Positions 38,503 through 58,046 of a stretch of 64,000 nt of DNA are shown piece by piece. The stretch covers positions 128,138 through 192,137 of the forward strand of contig JAZRRN010000049.1 of the NCBI GenBank assembly GCA_045650745.1, read 5' to 3'. The notes under the pieces were generated by a model, which was not told the origin of the DNA, searched no databases, and saw only the letters and a program-made list of their open reading frames with translations. The stretch comes from Candidatus Caccovivens sp. GTDB taxonomy: Bacteria > Bacillota > Clostridia > Christensenellales > UBA1242. Made by a program: the position numbers and the translations under genes. How positions within the stretch are numbered: the first letter of the stretch is position 1; the number at the start of each line of letters is the position of its first letter.

Positions 38503-39804
38503 TTAAGGTTTCAATCTGCTTGGTCCACGGAAGAGGAATATGCTGTCTTTGAGTGATTGCAAATCCAAAAGTTTTGAAATAAATCTGTCAATTCCAAAAC
38601 CAATTCCGCCGTGTGTAGGGCAACCATACTTGAAAAATTCGAGATAGTCAGCCATTTTAGAACTGTCGATGCCGTGTTCTTCGATTTGTTGTTTGAGTTG
38701 AGCATATCTATGTTCTCTCACAGCACCACTGTTCATTTCCCAACCTCTATATAACATATCAAAACCCATACAGTCAAACGAATCATCTGTGATTTTCTTT
38801 GAATAGAATGCTCTTGCTTCTGCTGGATAATCTGTGATAAACACAAATTCGCTGTCAAGATAATCTCTTGTATATTCGCAAATCAACTTTTCAGCTTCTG
38901 GGTCAAGGTCGAGTTGTTTTTCTTCTGGTGTTTCAATTCCATAAACATCTCTAAAGATTTGGAAAACTTCTTTAAGTTTAAGTCTTGGGATTTTTGTTGG
39001 CACTTTGACTTCGATATCAAAAATTTCTTTGATTTGTGTGCCATAAGTTTCTTTGATTTTTCTCATAACATAAAGCATCCAATCTTCTTCAACATCAATG
39101 ACATCGTGATGTGATTTTACATGGGCGATTTCAAAGTCCAAGCAAACAGCTTCGGCTGTGTGTCTTGCAGTAAATGATTTTTCTGCTCTGTAATATGGTC
39201 CAATTTCAAACACTTTGTCAAAACCACTTGCAATCGCCATTTGTTTGTAGAATTGTGGACTTTGTGTCAAATATGCTTTTTGTCCATAATAGTCAAGAGT
39301 GAAAACTTCTGCACCACCTTCAGAGCATTGAGAAGTGATTTTTGGTGAGTGGATTTCGATGTAGCCACGATCAACAAAATATTCTCTCATCTTTGCTTCT
39401 GCAAAAGTTCTGATTTGGAAAATCAATCTTTGTTTTTGTTGTCTAAGATCAATCCATCTGAAATCCATTTTAAGTTCGCCAGCAGTTTGTTCGTCAATAG
39501 GCAAATCTTCTGCCAAGCTTTCAATTTCGATGCCAGAAGGCACGAGTTCGATTTGTCCCAATTTTACGCATGGGGCAGAAACAACTTTTCCCCAAATTGT
39601 CACAACGCTGTGACGAGAAATTTTGTCAAAGTCTGCCGATGCGAGTTCGGCAATCTTGTCTTTTTCAATTGCGACTTGAATGCTTCCTGTTGTGTCTGTC
39701 ACAACGAGAAACATCATTGTTTTTTGTTCTCTAATTTTTTCGATCCAACCTGAGATTTTGCAAATTTCATCAACTTGGACATCTTTAATATAAGTTCTTT
39801 TCAT
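38503..39804 (-). CDS. aspS: Aspartate--tRNA ligase, archaeal/eukaryal-type (AspRS2; probably non-discriminating, Asp-tRNA(Asn)-forming)
   Basis: 433 aa, class IIb. The runs IEIHSPKI...EGGAEVF...QSPQFYKQ, FRAE, GG.REHR, and the C-terminus PTHGGIGFGIDR...FRGPSRLKP align with my recollection of Pyrococcus/Thermococcus-type AspRS rather than AsnRS. It is directly coupled to gatCAB. Confidence 0.8.
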   Translation of the reverse strand: MKRTYIKDVQVDEICKISGWIEKIREQKTMMFLVVTDTTGSIQVAIEKDKIAELASADFDKISRHSVVTIWGKVVSAPCVKLGQIELVPSGIEIESLAEDLPIDEQTAGELKMDFRWIDLRQQKQRLIFQIRTFAEAKMREYFVDRGYIEIHSPKITSQCSEGGAEVFTLDYYGQKAYLTQSPQFYKQMAIASGFDKVFEIGPYYRAEKSFTARHTAEAVCLDFEIAHVKSHHDVIDVEEDWMLYVMRKIKETYGTQIKEIFDIEVKVPTKIPRLKLKEVFQIFRDVYGIETPEEKQLDLDPEAEKLICEYTRDYLDSEFVFITDYPAEARAFYSKKITDDSFDCMGFDMLYRGWEMNSGAVREHRYAQLKQQIEEHGIDSSKMADYLEFFKYGCPTHGGIGFGIDRFISKLLDLQSLKDSIFLFRGPSRLKP

Positions 39805-39957
39805 TTTTTATCTTCCTTTTTTATTTTTATTTGTTTGATTTTTTTTTGGTTTTACGGAAACCATCACCGTCCTAAATTTTTATATCTACACTGCCCTTTG
39901 GGGCATTATTAAATTTGTGATAAAACTTTGTTTTCATATTTTCTCCTGATTATAAAC

Positions 39958-40284: not shown

Positions 40285-41742
40285 ATGAAAAATTTTGGAG
40301 TGTTGTGCCATGTTACATGCCTTCCTGCAAAAACAGGGCTTGGTGATTTTGGCAAAAGTGCATTTGAGTTTTTGGATTTTTTGAAAGAGCAAAATCTCAA
40401 CTTGTGGCAAATTTTGCCACTCAACAATGCAAACGAATTCAACTGCCCGTATGGTCCACTCAGCACTCAGGCGATTGATGAAATGTTTGTTGATCTTGAT
40501 GATTTGAAAGACAGGGGGTTGCTTGAAGAGAAAGAGTATAAGCACCTTTACAAATTCAAAAAAACAAAAAAGGTTAAGTTTGCCAAAATAAGACCAGAAA
40601 AAGAGAGATTGTTTGCCCTTGCTTATTCGAGAATTGACAAAAAGACAATCGCAAAACTTGAAGAGGTTGCAAAAGAGAAAAAGCACTTTTTTGAGTATGC
40701 ATATTATCGCACCATGCTTGCAAAGTTTGGTCAAAAGAGTTGGCGTTTTGTTGAAGATAAATATTGGAATATTTATGGAAAGACCGGCCAAAAGTTTGCA
40801 AAAGAAAACCAAGCTGATATTTTGAAGTTTGTGTTTTTTCAATATGTTTTGCATGAGCAATGGGCAAAGATAAAAAACTATGCAAACAAACTTGGCATAA
40901 AGATTTTGGGCGATGTGCCAATGTATTGCGACAAAGACAGCGTTGATGTTTTTGCTGGCAAAGCGTGGTTTAAGTTGGACGACAATTGCATGCCAACAGT
41001 CACAGCAGGTTGTCCACCAGATGTGTTTTCTGATGTTGTGCAAGATTGGCAAACTTGCATTTATCAATGGGAGAAAATGAAAAAAGACAACTTCTCATAC
41101 ATGACAAACAGATTGTGTTTGCTTTTGGATAAATACGACCTGTTGAGACTTGATCATTTTGCAGGTTATGTGAGATATTACGAGCACGCAAAAGCGCCGG
41201 GCACAAAAACTCAATATGTCGATGGTGGTGGAAGCGAATTTTTTGCACAACTTAAAAAACTTGTCGATTTCAAAAAGCTTTTTGTGGAAGATTTAAGTGA
41301 CGAAAAAAGTGCGACAGGCAAGGTAATAAAAGAGTTTTCACTTCGCAAAATGAATGTTTTGCAATATGGTTTTGATACAGACAAAAACAATCCACATTTG
41401 CCACAAAATGTAAAAGCAAACATTGTGTATTACACCGGCACCCACGACAGCGCAACCTTTTTGGGATATTTGAAAAAACAAAACAAACAACAGATTGAAA
41501 AGATAAAAAACTTGATTGCATCTCAAGCAAAAAATCATAAAGAGTTGCAACTTGACTGCATCAGAAGCATGCTTGATTCAAAAGCGCAATATGTTGTTTT
41601 GCAAGCGCAGGACTTTATGTTTCAAGATGACCGTTGGCGTATGAACTATCCGGGCGTTGCAGCAGGTTGTTGGGAATATAGATTGTGCAACGACTATCAA
41701 AAAAAGATGGCAAAAATGCTGGCACAACTTGGTCAAAAATAA
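40285..41742 (+). CDS. malQ: 4-alpha-glucanotransferase (amylomaltase, GH77)
   Basis: The N-terminus FGVLCHVTCLPAKTGLGDFGKSAFEFLDFLKEQNLNLWQILPLN is typical of GH77; 485 aa. Confidence 0.85.
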   Translation: MKNFGVLCHVTCLPAKTGLGDFGKSAFEFLDFLKEQNLNLWQILPLNNANEFNCPYGPLSTQAIDEMFVDLDDLKDRGLLEEKEYKHLYKFKKTKKVKFAKIRPEKERLFALAYSRIDKKTIAKLEEVAKEKKHFFEYAYYRTMLAKFGQKSWRFVEDKYWNIYGKTGQKFAKENQADILKFVFFQYVLHEQWAKIKNYANKLGIKILGDVPMYCDKDSVDVFAGKAWFKLDDNCMPTVTAGCPPDVFSDVVQDWQTCIYQWEKMKKDNFSYMTNRLCLLLDKYDLLRLDHFAGYVRYYEHAKAPGTKTQYVDGGGSEFFAQLKKLVDFKKLFVEDLSDEKSATGKVIKEFSLRKMNVLQYGFDTDKNNPHLPQNVKANIVYYTGTHDSATFLGYLKKQNKQQIEKIKNLIASQAKNHKELQLDCIRSMLDSKAQYVVLQAQDFMFQDDRWRMNYPGVAAGCWEYRLCNDYQKKMAKMLAQLGQK

Positions 41743-43674: not shown

Positions 43675-44181
43675 TTAGTTGTCCAAAACGCAAATGTCTT
43701 TCAAGTTGCGATACTGTTCGTTGTAGTCAAGTCCAAAACCAACCACAAACAAATCTTCGATTGTTTTTCCAACATAGTCAGCATCAAATTTGACCTTTCT
43801 TCTGCTTGGTTTGTCGAGCATGGCAACAAATGTCAACGAATGGGGATTTCTTTTTTCGAGTTCTGCCTTCAAACAACTGAGTGTTGTGCCGGTGTCAACA
43901 ATGTCTTCGACAATAATGACATCTCTGCCGGCAATGTCAAAATCCAAATCTTTTTTGATGTTGATTTTGCCAGTGCTTTCTGTGCCAACATAACTTTTGA
44001 CTTGAATATAGTCAGCTTCAATTTGCATGTCAAGGTGCTTCATAAGCTCGCTGTGAAAAGGTGCTGCACCTTTAAGCACGCAAGAAACGATAGGGTTTTT
44101 GCCAGCAAACTTTTCGGTAAGTTGTTTGCCAATAGTTTTACACATGTCCACAATTTCGCTATGAGAAATCAAAACTTTCAT
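43675..44181 (-). CDS. hpt: Hypoxanthine(-guanine) phosphoribosyltransferase
   Basis: PRPP motif VIIVEDIVDTGTTL; 168 aa. The start overlaps the upstream stop as ATGA. Confidence 0.9.
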   Translation of the reverse strand: MKVLISHSEIVDMCKTIGKQLTEKFAGKNPIVSCVLKGAAPFHSELMKHLDMQIEADYIQVKSYVGTESTGKINIKKDLDFDIAGRDVIIVEDIVDTGTTLSCLKAELEKRNPHSLTFVAMLDKPSRRKVKFDADYVGKTIEDLFVVGFGLDYNEQYRNLKDICVLDN

Positions 44182-45272
44182 AATCTTTCTCCTTTTGTGA
44201 GATAGTCAATTGCATAATCAAGTTGAGGGTCGGTGTTGTTTTGAATATTTTCGATTGTTTTTTCAATTAGCACATCAGGAGCAATCGAACCTTCATAGCC
44301 GAAGATTTCGCTAAAATCCCAAAGACGAATAGAATAACAAAATTTTTTACCTTCCACTTCAGCCATTTCGTTGTAGCCATAAGATTTGGCCGCACCACCG
44401 GTTGGCTCGCCAATCAAAAGGGTGTTGAAATCTTTTTTAAATCTTGCAACGGCAAATCTGCCACTTGAAAAGACTCCACCATCAACAAGCAAAACTCCAT
44501 GCAGTTGTTTTTCTTTTACCAAATCTTGAAAAGGATTGAGGATTTCGGAGTTGCCACCGTTGTTTCCTCGCAAGTCAAGGATATATTTTGTTGTGACGGT
44601 TTCTTCGATTTTGGTTGCGATTTGTTTGACAAAATCTTCAAAAGACAGTTCGGTATCGTTTCGACAAGCAGCATATCTTACATACAAAATGTTGTTGTCT
44701 AAAATGTTGAAGTAATAGCTTTTTCGGGTTGATCTTTTTTCCTTTTGCTTTTCTTCAAATTCGGTATCATACAAAAAGTTTACTTCAACAAATTCTGTCG
44801 AGTTTTGGTTTGCCAATTCAAATTTAAGTGGTGGACAGGACAAGCCAAGCATTTGATAGAAATATCCGTTTTGAAAACCTCTTTCGATCTTAACTTTCTT
44901 CCAAGGTTGGGTTTCAAAGTTTGACATTTGCACGATTTGTTCCACCAATTCTCTTACAAGGATTCCGTTTATTGAAACAACTTTTTTCCAAGTTTTGTTG
45001 TCTTTGAGATACAAGTTTTGTTGGTTGAAAATTACAGAGTGAGAAAGTTCAATGTGTTTAACAAAATAAGATGTGTGTGCATCTTTGAAAAGTGCAAAAA
45101 GTTTCAACATTTCTCTGTCAAAACCTGTTTGGTCAAGATTGTTCCAATCAACGCTGTCAATATATTGCTCGACTTCCTCTTTTGAAATGTCGTGAAAAAG
45201 ATTTAAGTGTCCAGTTTTACACTTTTCCACAATTTGTGTTGCAATAATTTTATTGTTGACAGTGTTGTTCAT
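44178..45272 (-). CDS. S41-family peptidase-like protein
   Basis: LDLRGNNGGN and IGEPTGGAA motifs. The start is set at MNNTVNN (45272) behind AGGAG. The longer ORF-track start would run through the tRNA gene. Confidence 0.6.
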   Translation of the reverse strand: MNNTVNNKIIATQIVEKCKTGHLNLFHDISKEEVEQYIDSVDWNNLDQTGFDREMLKLFALFKDAHTSYFVKHIELSHSVIFNQQNLYLKDNKTWKKVVSINGILVRELVEQIVQMSNFETQPWKKVKIERGFQNGYFYQMLGLSCPPLKFELANQNSTEFVEVNFLYDTEFEEKQKEKRSTRKSYYFNILDNNILYVRYAACRNDTELSFEDFVKQIATKIEETVTTKYILDLRGNNGGNSEILNPFQDLVKEKQLHGVLLVDGGVFSSGRFAVARFKKDFNTLLIGEPTGGAAKSYGYNEMAEVEGKKFCYSIRLWDFSEIFGYEGSIAPDVLIEKTIENIQNNTDPQLDYAIDYLTKGERL

Positions 45273-45328
45273 GTCGCTCCTAAAAAACAACTCAGCCGAC
45301 CCAATAAGGGGACGACTGAGTCTAGTGT

Positions 45329-45405
45329 TGGTGCGTCGCAAGGGATTCGAACCCCTGACCTTTCGTTCCGTAGACGAACGCTCTATCCAGCTGAGCTAGC
45401 GGCGC
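45329..45405 (-). tRNA. tRNA-Arg (anticodon ACG)
   Basis: Minus strand reads GCGCCGCTAGCTCAGCTGGATAGAGCGTTCGTCTACGGAACGAAAGGTCAGGGGTTCGAATCCCTTGCGACGCACCA. It folds as a cloverleaf with anticodon stem TTCGT/ACGAA, loop CTACGGA, a GTTCGAATC T-loop, and an encoded CCA. Confidence 0.95.
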
Positions 45406-45511: not shown

Positions 45512-45544
45512 AAAAATGAAAAACCCCTTAATCAAAAGGGGTTT
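45512..45544 (-). terminator. Rho-independent terminator after the lipoprotein gene
   Basis: AAACCCCTT/AAGGGGTTT stem, followed by a T-run on the minus strand. Confidence 0.8.
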
Positions 45545-45566: not shown

Positions 45567-46592
45567 TTATTTAACAGTCACACTAAAATATTCAGGATTG
45601 TATGGTTCGTCAAACTTGTCGTTGTCTGTTGAGTTCCAATCTCCTTTTGCACAGTTGGTAAATGTGTTGTTTTGCAACAATACCGTGTTTATTTCTACAT
45701 TTGTGCTGTCAAGAACAATAGCAGGTTTTTCAGTTAAGCCAACAAAAGTGTTGTCTTTAATGGTTATATCTGCTCCAGAAGTTACGACTTTAATGCCTCT
45801 TGTGGTGTTGTTAAATGTGCATCCTTCTATTACAAAAGTGTCAACAAAATCCATATTTGTACCACCGTCTCCACCAACATAGCCTGCCCAAATAGAATAT
45901 CTGCTTGCGATGTTGAAATCAAATACGCAATTTTTTATTGTGGCTTTTGTGCCACGATTGAATTGAACACAATTTGTAAAGGTGCAGTTTTCAATAAACA
46001 ATTCGCCACATTGAAATTCGGTGTTTGTAAGAGTGTAATGACTGCTTGATGTTTTTCTAGTATCATTGATTTTCAATCCGACCACACTTATCTTTCCAGT
46101 TGCCGCAGTCGCATTTTGATTGCTGTGATGTTTTGTTCTAAACACAGCTGTATCAGCAGTTGTAGTGTCGCCTGTTACAAGTGTCAATTCAGGATTTTGT
46201 CCCAAACCCACCAAATATACTTCTGTCGCAGAACCTTTTGCCAAATCGGCAGCACCGCCGGCTGTCCCAGCCACTGCCGCATCATAATCAACAGATCCTG
46301 AAATGATAAAAGTCATTTTGCCATCAATTGGTTGAACATTTTCATCAAACAGAATGCCATCAAGAGTTTGAGCAGATTCGCCAGTTTTTAAATATTCGCT
46401 GCCGACCCCTTTTATCAAATAGCCTCCACACCCCTCACAAAAATCAATTTTTTCATTTCCTGCAAGAACTTCAAATGTGTGCGTGTGTGCTGGTTCCGCT
46501 GGTGGGTTGTTGTCATTAGAACATGCAACACAAACAGCACCTACAAGCATTATTGACAAAACCATAATAAATGTTGTTAGTTTTTTGTACAT
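45567..46592 (-). CDS. Lipoprotein with right-handed parallel beta-helix repeats
   Basis: Signal peptide plus lipobox MYKKLTTFIMVLSIMLVGAVCVAC|S. Repeated [IV]ENCTF.N / IKNCVF / IEGCTFNN / IKDNTF units are typical of pectate-lyase-fold repeats. Confidence 0.75.
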   Translation of the reverse strand: MYKKLTTFIMVLSIMLVGAVCVACSNDNNPPAEPAHTHTFEVLAGNEKIDFCEGCGGYLIKGVGSEYLKTGESAQTLDGILFDENVQPIDGKMTFIISGSVDYDAAVAGTAGGAADLAKGSATEVYLVGLGQNPELTLVTGDTTTADTAVFRTKHHSNQNATAATGKISVVGLKINDTRKTSSSHYTLTNTEFQCGELFIENCTFTNCVQFNRGTKATIKNCVFDFNIASRYSIWAGYVGGDGGTNMDFVDTFVIEGCTFNNTTRGIKVVTSGADITIKDNTFVGLTEKPAIVLDSTNVEINTVLLQNNTFTNCAKGDWNSTDNDKFDEPYNPEYFSVTVK

Positions 46593-46612
46593 AGTTTTCT
46601 CCTATATAAGCA

Positions 46613-46640
46613 ATTATATAATAAGGGGGGGGGAATGCAA
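46613..46640 (-). promoter_or_regulatory. Candidate promoter TTGCAT-16-TATAAT of the lipoprotein gene with a C9 tract in the spacer
   Basis: -35 at 46640-46635 and -10 at 46618-46613. The spacer is T + C9 + TTATTA. SD AGGAG and the ATG at 46592 lie 20 nt downstream. Confidence 0.5.
46625..46633. repeat. G9/C9 homopolymer tract
   Basis: ggggggggg on the plus strand. It is the only G/C homopolymer longer than 5 that I saw in the window. Confidence 0.95.
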
Positions 46641-46702
46641 GCAAACGAAGAAAGAATTAAGCGTTTTAGCGGGTTTTTATCAAAAATTTGTCGAAGGAAA
46701 GT

Positions 46703-48514
46703 TTAATTTTGCAGAAAGTTTTTGATTTCGACTGCAAGTGATTGATGTATACCTTTGATTTGGCAGAGTTCTTCAACGCTTGCATTTTTTATTGCTTCGG
46801 TTGTGCCAAAAGCGTTGAGCAGGGCATTGATTTTTACTTTGCCAAGTCCTTTAATGTCTTCCAAGGTTGAGGCTGTTTGCGATTTTGTTCGCACAGTGCG
46901 ATGGAAGGTGATTGCAAAGCGGTGAGCTTCATCTCTAAGTCGTTGCAGAAGTTTGAGTTCGGCGCTGGCGTACTTCAAAATCACAGGGTGTGATTGTTGT
47001 GGCACAAAAACTTCTTCCAATCTTTTTGCAAGAGAGATCATCTCTATTTGGTTTTCAAGCCCAAAGGTTTGCAAAATTTCATAACAAGAAGAAAGTTGCC
47101 CTTTGCCACCGTCAATGACAAGCAAATCTGGTTTTTCTTTGAAACTTTCACCATTTTGATCGACATATCTTTGCAATCTTCGAGAAAGGGTTTCTTTAAG
47201 ACACTCAAAATCGTTGTTGCCGGCAACTGTTTTGATTTTGAATTTGCGATATGCTTTTTTGTCGGCCGTTCCGTTTGTGAAAATGACCATAGATGCAACT
47301 TTGTTTGTGCCACCGATATGCGAAATGTCATAACATTCAATGCGCTTTGGCAAAGTTTTGAGTTTTAGATTTTTTTGAAGTTGTGAGATTGCGCCAATGC
47401 TTGTGTTGTAAGCAATTTTTTCCTTTTCTAAATGCTTTTCCAAATATTCTTTTGCATTTTCTTTTGCCATGTTCAAAAGTGTCAAGTTTGCTGCGTGTGG
47501 GTTTGAGACAATGCTTATCTTTTTGCCTAAGAAATCTGAAAGTAGTTGACTGTCAAGTTGGTGGCTGACCACAATTTCATTTGGAACAATCACATTTTGA
47601 TAATATTGACAAACAAAATTGAAAAGAGTTTGTTCTTGTTCGAGTTCGGCATCGCTTTGTGCAAAATTGGTTATGCCAAGGATTTTGCCTCCACGAATTA
47701 CAATCAAACTTACAACGCCGCTAAGGCCATCGCTGTAATATGCCCAAATGTCTTTGTCGACATCTTTTGCAAGGTTTGCAACAATGCGAGATTTGAGTTT
47801 TGAAATCATCTTCAAGTTGTCACGCAACTGAATGGCTCTTTCAAAGTTTTCAAGGTTGGATGCGGTTTGCATTTTTTGCATAAGGATTTGTTCGATTTCT
47901 TCGTCGTTTCCGTTTAAGAAATTGATTGCTTTTTTGACTTCTTCAAAATATTCTTCTTTTGTTGTTTTTTGAGTGCAAGGGGCAAGACAAAGGCCGAGAG
48001 AATAGTTGAGGCACTCTCTTTTTGCACAAGTGGTTGTTGTTATTTTTGAAGTGCATGTGCGAAGTTTGAATGCAGAACCGATTGTTTTCAAAATTTCTCT
48101 TGGGTCAATGCCAGAAATGTATGGTCCAAAATATCTTGCACCATCATTCTTTTTGACCTTTCGCACGATTTCTAAACGGGGAAAATCTTCTTTAAGATCT
48201 ATTTTAATGTATGGAAAAGCCTTTCCATCTTTGAGAAGTATGTTGTAAAATGGTTGATGTTTGTGGATAAGGTTGCTTTCAAGTCCCAGAGCATCAAGTT
48301 CGCTCATTGCAATAAAATAATCAAAGTCGTCAACATTGTTGACCATAGCCTGAACTTTGCTTGGTTTTGGCGACGAGCGAAAATACTGACTAACCCTGTT
48401 TTTCAGGTTTTTAGCCTTTCCGATGTATATGATATTTCCACCGACATCTCGCATGATATATACGCCGGGTTTTGTCGGCAAAGTTTGCAATTTTTGCTTT
48501 ATTCTGTCGTTCAT
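46703..48514 (-). CDS. uvrC: Excinuclease ABC subunit C
   Basis: GIY-YIG N-terminus PGVYIMRD..GNIIYIGKAKNLKNRVSQYF, the UvrBC domain, and an Endo V-like/HhH C-terminus. The start is set at MNDRIKQKL. An alternative start lies 6 codons upstream at 48532. Confidence 0.92.
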   Translation of the reverse strand: MNDRIKQKLQTLPTKPGVYIMRDVGGNIIYIGKAKNLKNRVSQYFRSSPKPSKVQAMVNNVDDFDYFIAMSELDALGLESNLIHKHQPFYNILLKDGKAFPYIKIDLKEDFPRLEIVRKVKKNDGARYFGPYISGIDPREILKTIGSAFKLRTCTSKITTTTCAKRECLNYSLGLCLAPCTQKTTKEEYFEEVKKAINFLNGNDEEIEQILMQKMQTASNLENFERAIQLRDNLKMISKLKSRIVANLAKDVDKDIWAYYSDGLSGVVSLIVIRGGKILGITNFAQSDAELEQEQTLFNFVCQYYQNVIVPNEIVVSHQLDSQLLSDFLGKKISIVSNPHAANLTLLNMAKENAKEYLEKHLEKEKIAYNTSIGAISQLQKNLKLKTLPKRIECYDISHIGGTNKVASMVIFTNGTADKKAYRKFKIKTVAGNNDFECLKETLSRRLQRYVDQNGESFKEKPDLLVIDGGKGQLSSCYEILQTFGLENQIEMISLAKRLEEVFVPQQSHPVILKYASAELKLLQRLRDEAHRFAITFHRTVRTKSQTASTLEDIKGLGKVKINALLNAFGTTEAIKNASVEELCQIKGIHQSLAVEIKNFLQN

Positions 48515-48612
48515 AAAAACATTGTAGAGCATTTTTTTTCAAAAAACAACCAAATATAATAGAAAAAATATTATATAAATATTTGTTTTTTATTTTATTT
48601 TACCGAAAATTG

Positions 48613-48641: not shown

Positions 48642-48670
48642 GATAAAAACTATTTAAGGGAGGGTTGCAG

Positions 48671-51118
48671 ATGCAAACTTCAATGTTATTGGGTATGTTC
48701 GACTGGATTGGAGAGTTTTTTAAGGAACTTTTCAACCTTATTCCAAAAATTATGTACTTGCTTTATGCGTCAATTGCGTGCGTAATCGATGTGTTGCAAC
48801 TCTTTTTCCGTAAACTTGCCGGACTTGATGTTTATTATGTAGACGGCGAAGCAATTACTGGAGACTTGGTTACAAACTTTATTACCGGGATTTTAGGTAT
48901 CAATGCAGAAGGCCTTACATATTCGGCACTTTCAACCGTATTCTGGTCAATGTTGATTTTCGGTATTATCATTTGCTTCATTTCAACATTTATCGCAATC
49001 ATCAAAAGTCACTATACTTATGATGACAAAGCAGCAAAAGGTCCAATGCAATATGTTTACACAGGTGTAAAAGCAATCATCAACATGGTTGCAGCACCAA
49101 TCATCATTGTTTTGGCATTGTTTGTTTCAGAAGCATTGTTGTCAGCACTTGACACCATCACTTCTACCGGAAGTGGATCGGTCGCAGCGATGTATGGCGA
49201 TGCAGTAGATCAGTTGTCGCTGGTTGACACGGTTAAGGGTGCGACCGGAAAGGCAAAAGAAAAAACTTACATATTCTATGATATATTCGGATTCCAAGCA
49301 GGCATTTTGTATGGTCCATCTGGAGGACCTGCAGAAGGCACTTCAAACGAAAAGAAGAAAGAGATTGCAAAGATTGCATCTAAAAACGAAACTTTCTCAG
49401 GATCACTCTTCAAAGTGGCAGCATTCAATGCAAACAGAGCGAGACTTGGACAAATCAACACAACAGGAGCATTTACAGGAAACGCTGGTTCAAGCTGTAC
49501 TTTGTTTAGAAATGCAAAGAGTCAGGAACACTTGGCAGAGATGATTGACATGGCGTTTGCTTGCAACTTGAGAGCTGACAAAGGTTACACATTGGACTAC
49601 ACACCATTTGCAGAAACAGGTGGGGGCATCGTGTCAATGAAATACTTTACAAACTTCTTGTCCCTCAGGGGAACTCACTTCAGTAAGTTTAACATTGGTG
49701 CCGTTTGGTACTATTATGACTTGTGGCAATTCAACTTTATCGTTGGTTTTGCAGGTTGTATCGTTTGTACTTCAATTTTCATAAACATTATCCTTGGTCT
49801 TATGACAAGATTGTTTATGTGTATCGGACTCTTCCTTATCGCATCTCCATTGTTTGGTCTTGCACCAATGGATGGAGGAAAAGCAGGAAAGAGCTGGAGA
49901 GAAAGCTTTACAAAGCAGGTTCTCATGACGTATGGTTCTGTCGTCGGCATGAACTTGATGCTGATGATCCTGCCATATATGAACACAATTGACTTCTTCA
50001 ATGTGGCAATCGCAGACTATTTTGCAAGAACATTGCTTATCATTGTTGGTCTTATCACAATCAAAGCATTCATCGGTGTATGTTCGAGCTTGGTTGGTGG
50101 TGAAGATGCCAACAAGACAGGTGACGGAATTAAGAAAGAAGTTGCTTCAGTTGCCGGAAAAGCAACAAGCATGACTGTTGGTGCTGCAAAACTTGGTGTC
50201 AAAGGTACAGCGCTTGCTGCAAAGGGATTCAACCAATCAGTTGCTTTGGGTGCTGCTGGTGTAAGAGCTGCAGCAGGTGGAATCGATGCACTTCGTGCTG
50301 GCGCAAAAGGTAGAGAAGCTACTAGATTGCATACAGAGTTCAACCTCAACAGACAAACTAGAGCAGGCACTGCTGGTGCAACAGCAAGAAGCACAGCCGT
50401 TGGCCGTATGACAATGGGTGCATCTGGCAGAGCTGGAAGAAGAGAAGACAATCAAGCAAGACAAGATTTGATGGCTGCAGGATACAGCAGAAGAACAGCA
50501 AATCAAATGGTTAGAGATATGCGTGCTGAAGTAAATGCTGGCCGTGGCGCAACAGCCGCAGCAACAGCAAGAAGCAACGCAGCATCTACACTTGCAAGCA
50601 CAAGAAACGCTGCTCGTAACGCATCTGCTCAACTTAGAACAAGATCTACAACAAGACTTAGCAGAGCTGCTACAAGTGTTGGAAACAACCAAATTGCTCA
50701 AGCAGTATGGAGACCAATGAGAGCAGTTGGATCTGCAGTTGCTCATCCAAGAACAACTCTCAGAGCAATGGGCACAGGCATCGCAAATGCAGGAAGAAGT
50801 GTAAACAGAGCAATCAACAGTCAAACAATTGGTGGAACAATTGGTGGAGCACTTGGTTTTGCAGGTGGTGCATTAACAGGAGATGACTTCACAAAAGAAT
50901 TTATGCACGAATCTGGCATTAAGAGAAAACCTGACCATGCTAGAGATACAGCAAACAACACAGCTGCTACTAGACAAGCCGCACAAGGCATGGCTAGACA
51001 ACAAGCCGAAGCTAGATATCAAGCTTGGTTGGCTACTCCAGCTGGTACTAGAGCAGGTATCCCAGCAAGAAATGCTGAAAGAGCTCGTATTTACAGAGAA
51101 TATGGTTTGACTCCATAA
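48671..51118 (+). CDS. Polytopic membrane protein with ~330-aa Arg/Ala/Gly/Thr-rich C-terminal tail (function unknown)
   Basis: SD GGGAGGG lies 6 nt before the ATG at 48671; the ORF-track TTG at 48665 abuts the SD. The first ~480 aa have multiple hydrophobic helices. The remainder is low complexity, for example GATARSTAVGRMTMGASGRAGRRE and AATARSNAASTLASTRNAARNASAQLRTRS. A terminator follows. Confidence 0.7.
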   Translation: MQTSMLLGMFDWIGEFFKELFNLIPKIMYLLYASIACVIDVLQLFFRKLAGLDVYYVDGEAITGDLVTNFITGILGINAEGLTYSALSTVFWSMLIFGIIICFISTFIAIIKSHYTYDDKAAKGPMQYVYTGVKAIINMVAAPIIIVLALFVSEALLSALDTITSTGSGSVAAMYGDAVDQLSLVDTVKGATGKAKEKTYIFYDIFGFQAGILYGPSGGPAEGTSNEKKKEIAKIASKNETFSGSLFKVAAFNANRARLGQINTTGAFTGNAGSSCTLFRNAKSQEHLAEMIDMAFACNLRADKGYTLDYTPFAETGGGIVSMKYFTNFLSLRGTHFSKFNIGAVWYYYDLWQFNFIVGFAGCIVCTSIFINIILGLMTRLFMCIGLFLIASPLFGLAPMDGGKAGKSWRESFTKQVLMTYGSVVGMNLMLMILPYMNTIDFFNVAIADYFARTLLIIVGLITIKAFIGVCSSLVGGEDANKTGDGIKKEVASVAGKATSMTVGAAKLGVKGTALAAKGFNQSVALGAAGVRAAAGGIDALRAGAKGREATRLHTEFNLNRQTRAGTAGATARSTAVGRMTMGASGRAGRREDNQARQDLMAAGYSRRTANQMVRDMRAEVNAGRGATAAATARSNAASTLASTRNAARNASAQLRTRSTTRLSRAATSVGNNQIAQAVWRPMRAVGSAVAHPRTTLRAMGTGIANAGRSVNRAINSQTIGGTIGGALGFAGGALTGDDFTKEFMHESGIKRKPDHARDTANNTAATRQAAQGMARQQAEARYQAWLATPAGTRAGIPARNAERARIYREYGLTP

Positions 51119-52478: not shown

Positions 52479-52631
52479 AAAGGAGACAGAAATAAAAAAC
52501 ACTCTTTAAAAATGTTGTTGAAAAACATTAGTTTGCTTGATTTTGAGTTTTTTTGATATTTCTTTACTTTTGATGCCAGTTTGATATATTATGTTTATAT
52601 AAATAAACTTCACTATATAAGAGGAAAGCAA

Positions 52632-55600
52632 ATGAGAAAAAAGCATTTTATTTTTGTTTTGTGTTGCATGATGTTCTGTTGGGCAGTGACAGCCTTTTTG
52701 TCAATGCCTACACAAATGACTCTTGCTCAAGAAAATGTTCATAGTCAAGAGGTTTCTGACTTTTTGAGATTTGAACAGGCGATCATCGACTTAAACAATT
52801 CGAAAGATCAACAAGTGATTTCTCAACAGGTTGCTTTGGCAGAAGTAGAGATTGAAGAAGATATTGTTTGTGAAGATGTCCAAAGTGTCGATTTTTCGTT
52901 GAAGAGGTTGATTGTTCAAGGAAATGTGACAAACACTTATGGGGCGACTGATAAATTGTCGTTTAGCAACCTGAATGTTTTGTGTTACAAGACCGAAAAA
53001 GAAACAAAAGATGCGTTTGAAAAACTTGCGCAAAATTCAAACCTTGATGTTGTTGTTGACAAAATTGAAAAAGTTGATGGATATGCTCAACAAGATTATA
53101 CTTACACCAACAAAAACTGGGGCGCAGAGGCTATTGATGTTGGGGGTTACAAGCAATTTCTTGTTGACAGCGATGTGCAAGATGAAGTTGTGGTTGTTGT
53201 TATGGACACAGGCATCAATACATCTCATTCAATGTTTGCAAACAGATTGCTTAAAGACAGAGTAGGAAAAATAAGAGGCTTTTCTTATTATGATTCAAAA
53301 TACAAATACAGCTATCGAAATTTAGGTTTTGATGTTGATGATTTGACAACACAAGACATTGATGAAAGTGATTTAAACAAATATAGTTTTGAAGATGATC
53401 ATGGACACGGCACACATGTTGCAGGCATCGTTTGTGATCTTACACCAAAAAATGTAAAGATTTTGCCAATCAAAGTTGGAAATGATGAGGGGTTTTCTTC
53501 AACATCAATTTTTTTGGCAGCTTATTTGAGAGTGATCAACATTTATTCAAAACAATATAAAATTGCTTGCACAAACTTGAGTTTTTCCGGAGCTGGAAAA
53601 TCAAGCGAGGCTGACAAAAATCAATTTAACGAACAATGCTATCAACCAATGAAAGAACTTGGAATCTTGGCAATCACAGCAGCAGGAAATGAAAGCGAAG
53701 AGATCAATATTGAAGGGTTGGAAGCGATTGTTGTTTCTGCTTTGAAACAATCAGAAGGCGAATATAAATTTGAAAATGAATATTCAAACTATGGAAAAAT
53801 GATTGACATTTCTGCACCAGGAACAGATATTGAATCTGCTTGGATTGCAGGAAACGCAGCAAACTCGACATACGAGACCCATTCAGGGACTTCAATGGCA
53901 TCACCACAAGTTGCTGGGGTTGTTGCATTGTTGGCTCTTCACCCAGATTATCAAGGTTTTACAGCAGAAGAAATGGAGCAAAAGTTGTATGATCTTGCTG
54001 TTGATTTGGGCGATTGGGGAAGAGATGATTATTATGGCTACGGCATGGCAAACATCAAATATTTTGAGGCTGAGGAGTTTGATGAAACTTTGTCTTTTTA
54101 TCGTGACAATGTTTTGATTGAAGTGCACCCAAATTGGGAAAACTTTGAAACAGACTTTACTCTTAAAATAGAATGTTCAGATGCAAGTTATCAAATCATT
54201 TACACAACAAATCAAGCACTTCCAACACTGACAAATGCGACTGTTTATTCAAATCCAATGACAGTCAGCGACACAATTTATTTGAATGTTATGGGGGTGA
54301 AAATTGACAACGGAATAGTTGTTGCAAAGACAGATGTTTACAATGTGGCATTTTTCGATTCTCGCAATCCATTGGAACAATATTTTGAAATTTCAAACGG
54401 CACATTGAGAAAGTATACTGGACACTTTGACAATTTGGTTATCCCAACTGTTATGAAGGGACAAACAGTCAAAACTGTTGGCAATAGCTTGTTTTTGTGG
54501 AACAATCTTCAGTCAATCACTTTGCCAGAAACCGTAACAAGCATTTCAGGATATGCATTTCAAAACTGCAAAGACCTTGTTTATGTTGATGCTCCAAGTG
54601 TTGCAGAAATTTATCTTGCAGGATTTAGTGGTTGCGATTCTTTGACAATGATCTGCGACAGAAATCCAGTGCAAGGAGAAACAGAAGGTGTTTTCTTGCC
54701 AAATCTTACAACTACAAAAGGGTTTGTGTTTAATATTTGCAAAAATCTTCAATCTGTAAATTTGTCAAAATTGACCACTGCCGGAGAATATGATTTTCAA
54801 GCATGCTATCAATTGACATCTGTATATTTGCCAGCAGTAAAAGTGTTTGAAGAAGGCATGTTTGCTTTTTGTGAAAACCTTACTGGAACATTTTTCTTTG
54901 GCAAAGATGTTGAAACAATTGAAACACGAGCTTTTTCACACACAAAGATAAAAAGATTTGAGATTGCAAAAGGAAACACAAACATTTACACTGATGGGCT
55001 TGGCGTTTACACAAAAGACACACTTGTTTGTTTTGCTGCAGGAAACACAAACATCAATTATGAAATTTTGGGCAGTGTTTCAATTGGAGGAGAAATCTGC
55101 ACAATCACAAAACTCGGAGAAGTTGCTTTGGGGTTGGTGGAACTCAACAAATTGACAATCCCTGAAACGATTAACATTATTGGTGCGTGGGTGGGCTCAG
55201 AATCTAAAATCCACCACTTGTATTTTGATGCTAAAAACTGTTCGGAAGATGGATATTATAAGACAATAAGTGGCGTTACAGGCAGATGCCCACCTTGGGA
55301 CACTTTTTCTATCATAGAAATCGGCCCAAATGCAACAAGGGTGCCATTGAGAATTTTTCAAGATGTTTATTTTGATGAGTTGATTATCAATTCTCGAGCA
55401 ACATATTTTGAAACTGCAAGTTTGTATAGATTTAGAGATCAAGGAGTTTTAAACAAACTCGTGTTCAATTTTGCTGACAAGATTGATTCAAGTTATTTGA
55501 ATATGGTTGTTGGGACATCAGCACTTTGCACTTACAATGACATCAATTATATTTATTCAAAAGCAGAAGTGCCAGTCAGTTCTTCATCATATTTATCAAG

Positions 55601-58046
55601 TTTGAGATATTCAACATACGACGGAGAGTATTATATTTACAGCAAATCTCCAATTGTGACTGAAGAAAAATTTGTCATCAGTGCCACCTCAAACACTTAT
55701 GGAAAGATTTCACCTTCGGGAGACAATTATTTCACAAAAAACAGTTCGGCAACATTTATGTTTGAAGCAAATACAGGTTGTTATGTTGCAAGCATAAAGG
55801 TTGATGGTGTGGCATTGTCTGTTGAAGAAGTTGAAATAGCAAGCACAAATGGTTACACATTTGAAAATATTGAAAGTGACCACACAATTGAAGTTGTGTT
55901 TGCGAGAAGAATTTACAGAATTTCAGTCGTTCAGTCGCCAAACGGACTTATAAGTGGTGCGGCAGATGGATATTATTATGGCGAAGTAGCAACCTTTACG
56001 ATCACGCCAAGTGTAGGCTATTATGTCGAATGTTTGATTGTAGATGGCGAAGAAGTTTATGAGCATCCAACCTGGCACAAATTTTTGTATATCACAGAAA
56101 ACCATACAATAAGTGCAAAGTTTTCTCCAAAACCAAACACTGGATACACTGCCAAACATTGGGTTGAAAGTTTGACCGAAGAAGGGGCAACTCGTTTTGG
56201 TCAAAAGTATTACAACTTGATCACAACAGATTCGTCATACGCCGGCACGACTGCAGAAATGACAGCTGTTGTGGCAGGAAGTTATGAAGGTTTCACTGTT
56301 CAACAATTTGAGCAAAAAGTTATTTTGGGAGATGGAAGCACGGTTGTTGATGTGCTTTACAACAGAAATGCATATACTGTAAACCTTGCAAAAGGCGAAG
56401 GCGTGACAGCTGTTTCTGGAGATGGAACTTATTTGTTTGGACAAACAGTGACACTGACTGCAATTCTTGCAGAAGGATATGATTTTTCAGTTTGGACAAG
56501 TTCAAACCATTCGGTTGTTGCAAACGGAAATGTTGCACAATATTCGTTTGCAATGCCTGCAAGTTCGGTTGGATTTACTGCAAATGCGGCAATAAGACAG
56601 CTTGCTGTGTCAATAAGCGCAACAACAAATGGCAGCATTAGTCCTGCAACAACTCAAACTGTGAGTTACGGTGATGATTTGTTGCTGACTGTTGAGGCAG
56701 ATTATGGTTACGAATTGAAAGAACTTTTAGTTAATGGGGTTGATGTTTCGAATTTGGTTGAAGATGGAAAATATACCATTGAAAATATCAAACAAACCTA
56801 TATTGTTGTGGCAAACTTTGGTTTGGTAAAACACACAATCACAGCAACTTCAAACTTTGGTGGAGAAGTTGGTCCAGAAGGGACAATATTTGTGATTCAT
56901 GGAGAAATGCAAAACTATACCTTCTCGCCAAGCGAAGGTTACAGGGTTAAAGATGTCAAGGTTAACGGAGTGTCTGTTGGCAGTGTTGAAAATTATTTGT
57001 TTGAAAGAGTGTTGACAGATCAAACTGTTGAAGTCGAATTTGAAAAACTTGTTTTCACAATCGAAGTTGTTTGTGGTGACAACGGAAGTGTGGGACCAAA
57101 CGGTCTTGTAAGTGTTGAATATGGAAACAGCAAAACTTTTGCGATCACACCAGATGAAGGTTATGGAATTTTGACAGTTGAGTTGAATGGTGAAAGTTTG
57201 GCTATTACAACACAAATCATTGTAGAAAATGTTACAGAAAACAAAACTTTGAGAGTTGTGTTTGCTCAAATGTTTTTGCTTTCTGCCGAAAGTGATGAAA
57301 ACGGATCGATCACACCATCTGAAATTGTTATTTGGGGTGGACAAAAGAGATTTGATTTTCAACCAAACAAGGGATATCAAGTCAAAGATGTCAAAGTTGA
57401 TGGCGTAAGCATCGGGGCAGTTGATTTTTACACATTTGTCAATGTTGATAGAACGCACAGAATTTCAGTAGAATACGAAATCAAAAAACTCAACATTGTT
57501 TTGTATGTTGACGGATGCGGCATTGTTGAATGCGAAAACTTGTTGGAAGATGTGCTTTACGGAGATTCGAGATCTTTTGCTGTCACAGCTGACAAAGGTT
57601 GGAAACTGAGAAGCGTTTTTGTCAACGGAGAAACATTTGAAGTTTTAAATGGAAACCTAGAAATAGACCATGTGACAGAAAATTTGACAATCCAAGTGAT
57701 TTTTGAAAAGAGTTACACAAAAACTGCAGTGTTGATTGTAGTGATTGTTGGATCTGTTATGGTTTTAGGTCTTGTGGCATTTGTGACAATCAATGTCAAC
57801 AAGAGATTAAAGAAAAAGAAAATGGACAGCATGCTAAACGACTCAATGGGTCAAGGTGGTGTTCAACAAGCGCAAGCGACTGCATATATGACGCCACACC
57901 CAATGGTTAATCATGCATTGAATTTGGCTTCACAAAATCAACAAGACTTTGTTAAGTATTGTGAAGCAAACAAACTTGACCACAAGCAAAACTATGTCAA
58001 TGCGGCATTGAGTTATTATCAATCTCGCATAAAAACTAAAAAATAA
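52632..58046 (+). CDS. Secreted, TM-anchored multidomain surface protein: subtilisin-like S8 protease + BspA-type leucine-rich repeats + MucBP-like/Ig-like modules
   Basis: The start is set at MRKKHF behind AGAGGAAAG. Signal peptide ...AFLSMPTQMTLA|QE. S8 triad motifs are VVMDTGIN, HGHGTHVAG and HSGTSMASPQVAG. The LRR run is of the type ...VKTVGNSLFLWNNLQSITLPETVTSISGYAFQNCKDLVYV.... Repeated ~85-aa Ig-like units are of the type GS[IV][GS]P.G...V..G....F.F.P..GY.V.DV.V[ND]G. The TM helix is TAVLIVVIVGSVMVLGLVAFVTINV, followed by an ~85-aa tail. Confidence 0.88.
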   Translation: MRKKHFIFVLCCMMFCWAVTAFLSMPTQMTLAQENVHSQEVSDFLRFEQAIIDLNNSKDQQVISQQVALAEVEIEEDIVCEDVQSVDFSLKRLIVQGNVTNTYGATDKLSFSNLNVLCYKTEKETKDAFEKLAQNSNLDVVVDKIEKVDGYAQQDYTYTNKNWGAEAIDVGGYKQFLVDSDVQDEVVVVVMDTGINTSHSMFANRLLKDRVGKIRGFSYYDSKYKYSYRNLGFDVDDLTTQDIDESDLNKYSFEDDHGHGTHVAGIVCDLTPKNVKILPIKVGNDEGFSSTSIFLAAYLRVINIYSKQYKIACTNLSFSGAGKSSEADKNQFNEQCYQPMKELGILAITAAGNESEEINIEGLEAIVVSALKQSEGEYKFENEYSNYGKMIDISAPGTDIESAWIAGNAANSTYETHSGTSMASPQVAGVVALLALHPDYQGFTAEEMEQKLYDLAVDLGDWGRDDYYGYGMANIKYFEAEEFDETLSFYRDNVLIEVHPNWENFETDFTLKIECSDASYQIIYTTNQALPTLTNATVYSNPMTVSDTIYLNVMGVKIDNGIVVAKTDVYNVAFFDSRNPLEQYFEISNGTLRKYTGHFDNLVIPTVMKGQTVKTVGNSLFLWNNLQSITLPETVTSISGYAFQNCKDLVYVDAPSVAEIYLAGFSGCDSLTMICDRNPVQGETEGVFLPNLTTTKGFVFNICKNLQSVNLSKLTTAGEYDFQACYQLTSVYLPAVKVFEEGMFAFCENLTGTFFFGKDVETIETRAFSHTKIKRFEIAKGNTNIYTDGLGVYTKDTLVCFAAGNTNINYEILGSVSIGGEICTITKLGEVALGLVELNKLTIPETINIIGAWVGSESKIHHLYFDAKNCSEDGYYKTISGVTGRCPPWDTFSIIEIGPNATRVPLRIFQDVYFDELIINSRATYFETASLYRFRDQGVLNKLVFNFADKIDSSYLNMVVGTSALCTYNDINYIYSKAEVPVSSSSYLSSLRYSTYDGEYYIYSKSPIVTEEKFVISATSNTYGKISPSGDNYFTKNSSATFMFEANTGCYVASIKVDGVALSVEEVEIASTNGYTFENIESDHTIEVVFARRIYRISVVQSPNGLISGAADGYYYGEVATFTITPSVGYYVECLIVDGEEVYEHPTWHKFLYITENHTISAKFSPKPNTGYTAKHWVESLTEEGATRFGQKYYNLITTDSSYAGTTAEMTAVVAGSYEGFTVQQFEQKVILGDGSTVVDVLYNRNAYTVNLAKGEGVTAVSGDGTYLFGQTVTLTAILAEGYDFSVWTSSNHSVVANGNVAQYSFAMPASSVGFTANAAIRQLAVSISATTNGSISPATTQTVSYGDDLLLTVEADYGYELKELLVNGVDVSNLVEDGKYTIENIKQTYIVVANFGLVKHTITATSNFGGEVGPEGTIFVIHGEMQNYTFSPSEGYRVKDVKVNGVSVGSVENYLFERVLTDQTVEVEFEKLVFTIEVVCGDNGSVGPNGLVSVEYGNSKTFAITPDEGYGILTVELNGESLAITTQIIVENVTENKTLRVVFAQMFLLSAESDENGSITPSEIVIWGGQKRFDFQPNKGYQVKDVKVDGVSIGAVDFYTFVNVDRTHRISVEYEIKKLNIVLYVDGCGIVECENLLEDVLYGDSRSFAVTADKGWKLRSVFVNGETFEVLNGNLEIDHVTENLTIQVIFEKSYTKTAVLIVVIVGSVMVLGLVAFVTINVNKRLKKKKMDSMLNDSMGQGGVQQAQATAYMTPHPMVNHALNLASQNQQDFVKYCEANKLDHKQNYVNAALSYYQSRIKTKK

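Follow-up and report, generated by a model that had tools for sequence, protein, structure and literature searches.

A cytosine tract of strain-dependent length in the putative promoter spacer of a beta-helix protein gene of gut-type Clostridia

Does a run of nine cytosines in front of the gene for a secreted beta-helix protein determine, through its length, how strongly that gene is transcribed? The question follows from the position of the run and from its rarity within the stretch of DNA that was analyzed (64 kb, referred to below as the window; G+C content 37.5%). A census of the whole window on the plus strand revealed no run of five or more C's, seven runs of exactly five G's, none of six to eight and a single run of nine, where 0.034 G/C runs of nine or more are expected for independent bases (iid) and 0.015 under a first-order Markov model. 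The statement in a preliminary description of the locus, that no other G/C run exceeds five, is thus borne out. Perfect TATAAT hexamers occur only 32 times, counted over both strands of the window. Micro-repeat arrays of the contingency type were searched for in the window with TRF and none were found. The longest A/T run of the window is a T9 at 39839-39847, which lies between two divergently transcribed genes, one for a class II aminoacyl-tRNA synthetase (38503-39804, minus strand) and one for a GH77 4-alpha-glucanotransferase (40285-41742, plus strand), and is surrounded by short AT-rich tandem repeats (TRF).

Read on the minus strand, the run is part of the element TTGCAT-T-C9-TTATTA-TATAAT at 46640..46613, and the sequence around this element is ...gtttgcTTGCATtCCCCCCCCCttattaTATAATtgcttatatAGGAGaaaactATG. 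From 46660 to 46590 the minus strand reads gtttgc-TTGCAT-t-CCCCCCCCC-ttatta-TATAAT-tgcttatat-AGGAG-aaaact-ATG. The features of the locus are:

46703..48532, minus strand: uvrC, the upstream gene, recognized by the Pfam UvrC domains of an orthologue
46635..46640, minus strand: -35-like hexamer TTGCAT (ATGCAA on the plus strand), 3/6 matches to TTGACA with the TTG core, invariant in 7/7 strains
46619..46634, minus strand: putative promoter spacer T-C9-TTATTA, 16 nt (15, 16 or 18 nt in other strains)
46625..46633, minus strand: C9 homopolymer (G9 on the plus strand), the length-variable element, from the sequence and the census
46613..46618, minus strand: -10 hexamer TATAAT (ATTATA on the plus strand), 6/6 matches, invariant in all strains
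46599..46603, minus strand: Shine-Dalgarno sequence AGGAG, 6 nt 5' of the ATG
46590-46592, minus strand: ATG start codon of the beta-helix gene
45567..46592, minus strand: gene for the beta-helix protein, 341 aa, from the open reading frame and Pfam
45521..45544, minus strand: terminator-like hairpin followed by a T run, closing the transcription unit, from a terminator scan

Of the promoter-like elements 5' of the beta-helix gene, TTGCAT-16-TATAAT is the best, and its spacer contains the whole C9 tract. The preliminary description had placed a 9-nt C tract wholly within a 16-nt spacer between TTGCAT and TATAAT, and in this as in all other facts of sequence it was correct. With nine C's in the window, and eight, nine or twelve in the alleles found elsewhere, the tract is an uninterrupted mononucleotide run of a length at which slippage is expected, the threshold for G/C tracts being taken as about 8 nt or more.

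Whether the element is indeed the promoter of the gene is a matter on which the preliminary description can be followed in part. In its favour are the perfect -10 hexamer, which ends 20 nt 5' of the ATG, the invariance of both hexamers and the conserved position of promoters in homologues. Against this, the -35 hexamer has only three of six matches, and TTGCAT-16-TATAAT is not listed by a consensus promoter scan, which demands at least 4/6 matches in each hexamer; a -35 register moved by 1 nt (CTTGCA) scores equally to TTGCAT. A weak-looking -35 combined with a short leader is nevertheless normal for this organism, because other genes of the window show the same: TTGCAA serves as the -35-like box 5' of two of them, and their spacers measure 16-17 nt and their distances from -10 to ATG 16-31 nt. 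Moreover, a footprint of the intergenic region among the strains showed that 19 of 37 columns vary just 3' of the uvrC stop, against 5 of 31 across the -35 and the 25 nt upstream of it, with no substitution in either hexamer. The more distant homologues (L003, L004, L005, L009 and L010; 55-79% identity, in other genomic contexts) have no tract, and all five carry a sigma-A-like promoter 19-29 nt 5' of the ATG, with a spacer of 17 nt in four and of 18 nt in one. From these comparisons we infer that TTGCAT-N16-TATAAT is the active promoter of the beta-helix gene.

The length of the tract was compared between strains using contigs from public assemblies, which were retrieved via homologues of the protein and the members of their 90% clusters. 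After contigs that were 100% identical had been merged, the syntenic uvrC-gene-hpt locus was represented by seven distinct haplotypes, including the window; all comparators are short-read metagenome assemblies. Among the records from which the contigs derive are the runs SRR12710986 for a C8 strain, SRR12711204 for a C9 strain and SRR12529367 for the C7TC3 strain, and the assemblies ERZ27297774, ERZ28633463 and ERZ27297708. The haplotypes read:

Window: T-C9, spacer 16 nt
L002: T-C9, spacer 16 nt
L014 (identical to L015): T-C9, spacer 16 nt
L012 (identical to L013): T-C8, spacer 15 nt
L019 (identical to L020): T-C8, spacer 15 nt
L001: C12, with the T turned into C, spacer 18 nt
L016 (identical to L017 and L018): T-C7-T-C3 (C7TC3), spacer 18 nt

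The canonical spacer of 17 nt is found in none of the seven, and TTGCAT and TATAAT are unchanged in all of them. A uniform tract length across strains had been named beforehand as an observation that would speak against a variable promoter; instead the lengths differ (C8, C9, C12 and C7TC3) between invariant hexamers. The contrast with the flanks is most evident in pairs of haplotypes. Between L014 and L019, 79 SNPs were counted over 3,976 nt, and the tract accounts for the only indel. The pair L001 and L002, at 99.4% identity, shares an unaltered protein (P0002) but not the tract, which is C12 in L001 and T-C9 in L002; their three indels all fall within the 110-nt intergenic region and one of them is the tract. 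Another of these three is a one-base indel in a T run of L002, 3' of the -10 and ahead of the presumed transcription start, where L002 (around its position 207) reads TATAATTT and all other strains read TATAATT. As a control, 11 A/T runs of 6-8 nt were inspected in a 2.35-kb alignment of six strains, and these showed substitutions only and not a single indel, against four states of the C tract in the seven haplotypes. The tract is thus polymorphic among close strains with conserved flanks. As the strains diverge by 0.5-10%, the polymorphism proves a propensity for indels that is elevated relative to the flanks, not a rate of the grade known from phase variation.

The intergenic region holds a further kind of variation. 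In the first 40 nt or so after the uvrC stop, L001, L002, L012, L014, L019 and L016 fall into at least two haplotypes, ...ATTTATC-TGCAACAAG... and ...CTTGTCAAACGGCAAG..., which do not track the similarity of the strains (the 99.4% identical L001 and L002 differ here); this suggests recombination within the intergenic region 3' of the uvrC stop.

Attempts to enlarge the set of strains yielded little. An exact-flank DNA pattern gave no matches in the GTDB species genomes, and a protein-profile scan of the same genomes returned only a 73%-identical homologue without the tract, in 'Clostridia bacterium SGB_6659'. A variable-gap pattern had one match in the JGI metagenomes (L011), which was rejected as fortuitous, its spacer being unrelated and devoid of a C tract, and a pattern of the variable-gap type had none in IMG/VR. 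Judged by these searches, the source organism is rare in the collections and, at the level of the pattern, absent from the JGI metagenomes and IMG/VR. The contig labels XIEF21 and TONG22 resemble, as we presume, those of ruminant-gut metagenome studies.

The 341-aa product begins with a hydrophobic signal that ends in VAC-S, followed by a Pro-rich linker, an HxH...CxxC segment in which H36, H38, C52 and C55 are invariant, and a right-handed beta-helix. It matches the Pfam family Beta_helix (PF13229) with an E-value of 3.4e-10 and 40.2 bits, above the cut-off of 25.9, and an AlphaFold (AF2) model built on an alignment of 9 sequences (pLDDT 75, pTM 0.77) has stacked short strands at residues 190-312, so that both the gathering score and the model place it in the PF13229 class. 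A Foldseek comparison of the model with the PDB retrieved polysaccharide lyases, polygalacturonases, phage tailspikes and the pneumococcal adhesin PfbA; these are generic beta-helix matches, all with E > 0.02, and therefore permit no specific assignment as an enzyme or an adhesin. The protein had been described at the outset as a surface beta-helix lipoprotein. The beta-helix (Pfam and model) and the signal peptide stand, whereas the lipobox-like V-C-V-A-C, with a Cys at -3, fails the strict PROSITE PS51257-type pattern, tested near the N-terminus as {DERK}(6)-[LIVMFWSTAG](2)-[LIVMFYSTAGCQ]-[AGS]-C. Among the homologues P0004 alone passes this pattern and P0005 lacks the Cys. On the lipobox-like motif the window protein is a probable lipoprotein. 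The family is very narrow, with 8 homologues in all among 5.8 billion proteins; look-ups of the exact products of the window gene and P0001 gave no match, and no paralogue of the gene was found within the window.

On the 3' side, the beta-helix gene of the window is followed by a tRNA gene (45332-45405), a gene for an S41-peptidase-like protein (44178-45341) and then hpt. A comparison with L001 and L012 showed that the other strains lack the tRNA and S41-peptidase-like genes (together 44178-45405, minus strand) at their syntenic loci and have hpt directly 3' of the beta-helix gene. Divergently from uvrC an 817-aa predicted multi-pass membrane protein is encoded (48665-51118, plus strand), which has a long low-complexity tail rich in Ala, Arg, Gly and Thr, no Pfam match, and TTGCAA-17-TAAAAT upstream of its gene. 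An uninterrupted frame of 9,307 aa (123-28046, plus strand), which takes up 44% of the window, specifies a giant surface protein with at least 23 Listeria-Bacteroides repeat domains (Flg_new, PF09479) plus Flg_new_2, and has a TTGATA-16-TACAAT element 16 nt 5' of its ATG. Another frame, of 1,821 aa (52581-58046, plus strand), combines an S8 subtilase with BspA-type leucine-rich repeats and with chitobiase C-terminal-like and InlB B-repeat-like domains, and is probably a large surface protease.

In the reading that we prefer, and to which we assign a probability of roughly 60%, the C tract is a slippage-prone homopolymer in the spacer of a sigma-A-type promoter, and grades the transcription of a gene for a secreted, probably lipid-anchored beta-helix protein in the manner of porA, opc and vlp. 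Replication slippage would add or remove C's and thereby alter the distance and the rotational phasing between -35 and -10, as a result of which the strength of the promoter, and hence the transcription level of the gene, would differ between cells or strains. The outcome would be a graded dial that is heritable and in principle reversible. The reading supposes that the length changes by slippage, reversibly and at high frequency, that spacers of 15, 16, 17 and 18 nt would give different expression, and that the variable exposure of a surface protein would be of benefit to the cell. Spacers of 15, 16 and 18 nt, with none at 17, argue for such a graded 'volume control' over an ON/OFF switch. 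The original interpretation, in which slippage in the spacer switches the strength of the promoter, is supported in part: the tract does lie inside the spacer and its length varies among strains. As a length-polymorphic promoter-spacer tract the locus is well supported by the strain comparison, and as a locus of phase or 'volume' variation it is plausible.

The closest precedent is porA of Neisseria meningitidis, which also has a G/C homopolymer of some 9-11 nt between -35 and -10, of a length that differs between strains. In the porA promoter 11 G's give high surface expression, 10 G's about 2-fold lower and 9 G's 13-fold lower expression (PMC3639595). Changes of 1-2 nt thus grade the expression of the surface protein without a clean ON/OFF switch, and by analogy the same may hold for the window locus. 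The systems differ in that porA encodes an outer-membrane porin of a Gram-negative pathogen, for which the switching rate, the dependence on mutS and the benefit in immune escape have been measured. The opc gene of the same species has a poly-C tract in its promoter as well, which sets the level of transcription according to Sarkari et al. 1994 as cited in PMC6389960, and which shifts among clones from 11C to 12C or 14C (PMC6389960). It differs from the present case in a longer tract, a promoter without a canonical -35 and experimental proof. In the mycoplasmas, indels in the spacer switch the lipoprotein genes vlp, maa2 and vmm ON or OFF (PMC2268961). These genes of Mycoplasma hyorhinis (vlp), M. 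arthritidis (maa2) and M. mycoides (vmm) share with the window locus a spacer tract and products that are (here probably) lipid-anchored at the surface, and their hosts are low-GC relatives of the Firmicutes. The vlp genes form a multigene family with internal repeats, whereas the gene at the window locus is single-copy and its tract consists of C's, in a genome rich in AT. The vlp spacer tract itself, as Citti and Wise are said to have described in 1995, is poly-A.

Simple-sequence-repeat (SSR) tracts in promoters were found in the literature for Neisseria, Bordetella, Helicobacter, Mycoplasma, Treponema and Mycobacterium, and none were found for Clostridia. The only phase variation that we found described for this class is the DNA inversion of Clostridioides difficile. 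Its invertible promoters (cwpV, flgB, cmrRST and pdcB) resemble the window locus in belonging to the Clostridia, in having surface and signalling targets and in producing stochastic, heritable heterogeneity; the mechanism is different, namely site-specific inversion between inverted repeats, and there are none at the window locus.

An alternative that we consider unlikely is that the tract is mutationally unstable and functionally neutral. Expression would then be independent of its length, either through read-through from uvrC or through a promoter that works equally well with spacers of 15-18 nt. No terminator-like site was found between uvrC and the promoter, and read-through could therefore blunt a switch. 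The weak -35 fits a neutral tract too, as does the scatter of the lengths on both sides of 17 nt without settling there. In addition, promoter-adjacent tracts are not always phase-variable, examples being the T tract of M. agalactiae vpma and the A5/A6 tract of nspA (PMC6389960, PMC2268961), and a position near a promoter is therefore no proof of a function. Neutrality is harder to reconcile with the persistence of the tract in lineages that differ by as much as about 10%, given that G/C runs are otherwise strongly avoided (no other in the 64 kb exceeds five), or with its precise placement, since the hexamers on either side are invariant and the footprint around them is conserved. Moreover, in the systems where this was tested, changes of 1-2 nt in the spacer had effects of 2- to 13-fold.

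It is improbable that the composition of the block matters and its length does not, as would be the case for a recognition or structural element such as a site for a regulator or a stretch of G:C pairs whose rigidity influences melting. Such an element would account for the retention of the tract in all close strains and of 10 of 11 C's in the interrupted allele, and it agrees with the presence of a G tract in another promoter spacer of a relative (see below). A specific binding site would, on the other hand, poorly tolerate lengths of 8 to 12, and in the more distant homologues the promoter of the gene has an ordinary, AT-rich spacer. A structural role in RNA finds no backing either: no RNA structure is predicted, the fold of the intergenic region being no better than that of shuffled sequences (z = +1.0), and Rfam has no match in this region, the sole gathering-level match in the window being a tRNA. 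On account of both the fold and the Rfam result a leader RNA (riboswitch or attenuator) and an anti-Shine-Dalgarno pairing were rejected.

Could the length differences be artefacts of sequencing or assembly? G/C homopolymers are prone to error and the comparators are all of the short-read metagenome type, while the name of one contig (that of the relative L009) indicates about 2x coverage. Contigs of the same strain that came from two or three pipelines (ENA, Logan) are, on the other hand, 100% identical with the tract length included, as in L012 and L013 and in L016, L017 and L018, the last three sharing the C7TC3 allele. These three C7TC3 contigs are identical throughout and may represent one sample, and their agreement therefore attests to a reproducible read-out and not to stability over time. 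The length differences furthermore accompany distinct SNP haplotypes, no other homopolymer in the alignment has indels, and a step of 3 nt together with point substitutions (T to C and C to T) is atypical of homopolymer miscalls. An artefactual origin is thus very improbable. Two Logan contigs (L013, L015) end close to the locus but not at the tract, and their ends are uninformative on heterogeneity within a sample.

Switching of the promoter region by DNA inversion, to which the phase-variation literature found for Clostridia is devoted (all of it on C. difficile and its promoter-region inversions), was rejected as extremely improbable here, since a search for inverted repeats around the 110-nt intergenic region (46593-46702) revealed none and the promoter has the same orientation in all seven haplotypes.

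A second tract was encountered in the relative L009 (ENA ERZ28436057, NODE_23608), where positions 2455-2486 read TTGACA-GTAT-G11-CAGTG-TATAAT, that is, perfect hexamers at a spacing of 20 nt; at the coverage of about 2x the exact length of the G11 is uncertain. The tract is located immediately 3' of the gene for the 58%-identical beta-helix homologue, which may be a paralogue or an orthologue, and the putative promoter lies 23 nt 5' of the ATG of a gene for a 224-aa HTH_3 repressor of the XRE/RstR-like type. With G8 the spacer would return to 17 nt. An extended -10 was considered for this promoter and rejected, as the TG abuts TATAAT directly and does not form the canonical TGnTATAAT. The case of L009 hints that spacer tracts recur in the lineage. 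A far bolder proposal would be that poly-G/C spacer tracts serve this lineage of Clostridia for contingency at its promoters in general and not at one locus only, in which case slippage in L009 would toggle a regulator and with it a set of genes, similar to a phasevarion. We regard this as doubtful and offer it as speculation; if true, it would be the first repertoire of SSR phase variation described in commensal anaerobic Clostridia.

The preferred reading, a spacer tract that would grade the transcription of the beta-helix gene, invokes a textbook mechanism and the conceptual gain is therefore modest. Its relevance lies in the organism. Nearly all work on SSR phase variation concerns cultured pathogens, and a review from 2025 asks whether phase-variable loci are truly restricted to pathogens or whether this impression reflects a bias of the databases (PMC11868660). 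Phages or host antibodies could plausibly exert pressure on the beta-helix product, a putative surface protein confined to its lineage. A strain-polymorphic spacer tract in a metagenome-assembled genome (MAG) of uncultured gut-type Clostridia would extend the mechanism to a lineage of commensal anaerobes, and the strain comparison also shows that public metagenome assemblies are sufficient to validate a locus of this type.
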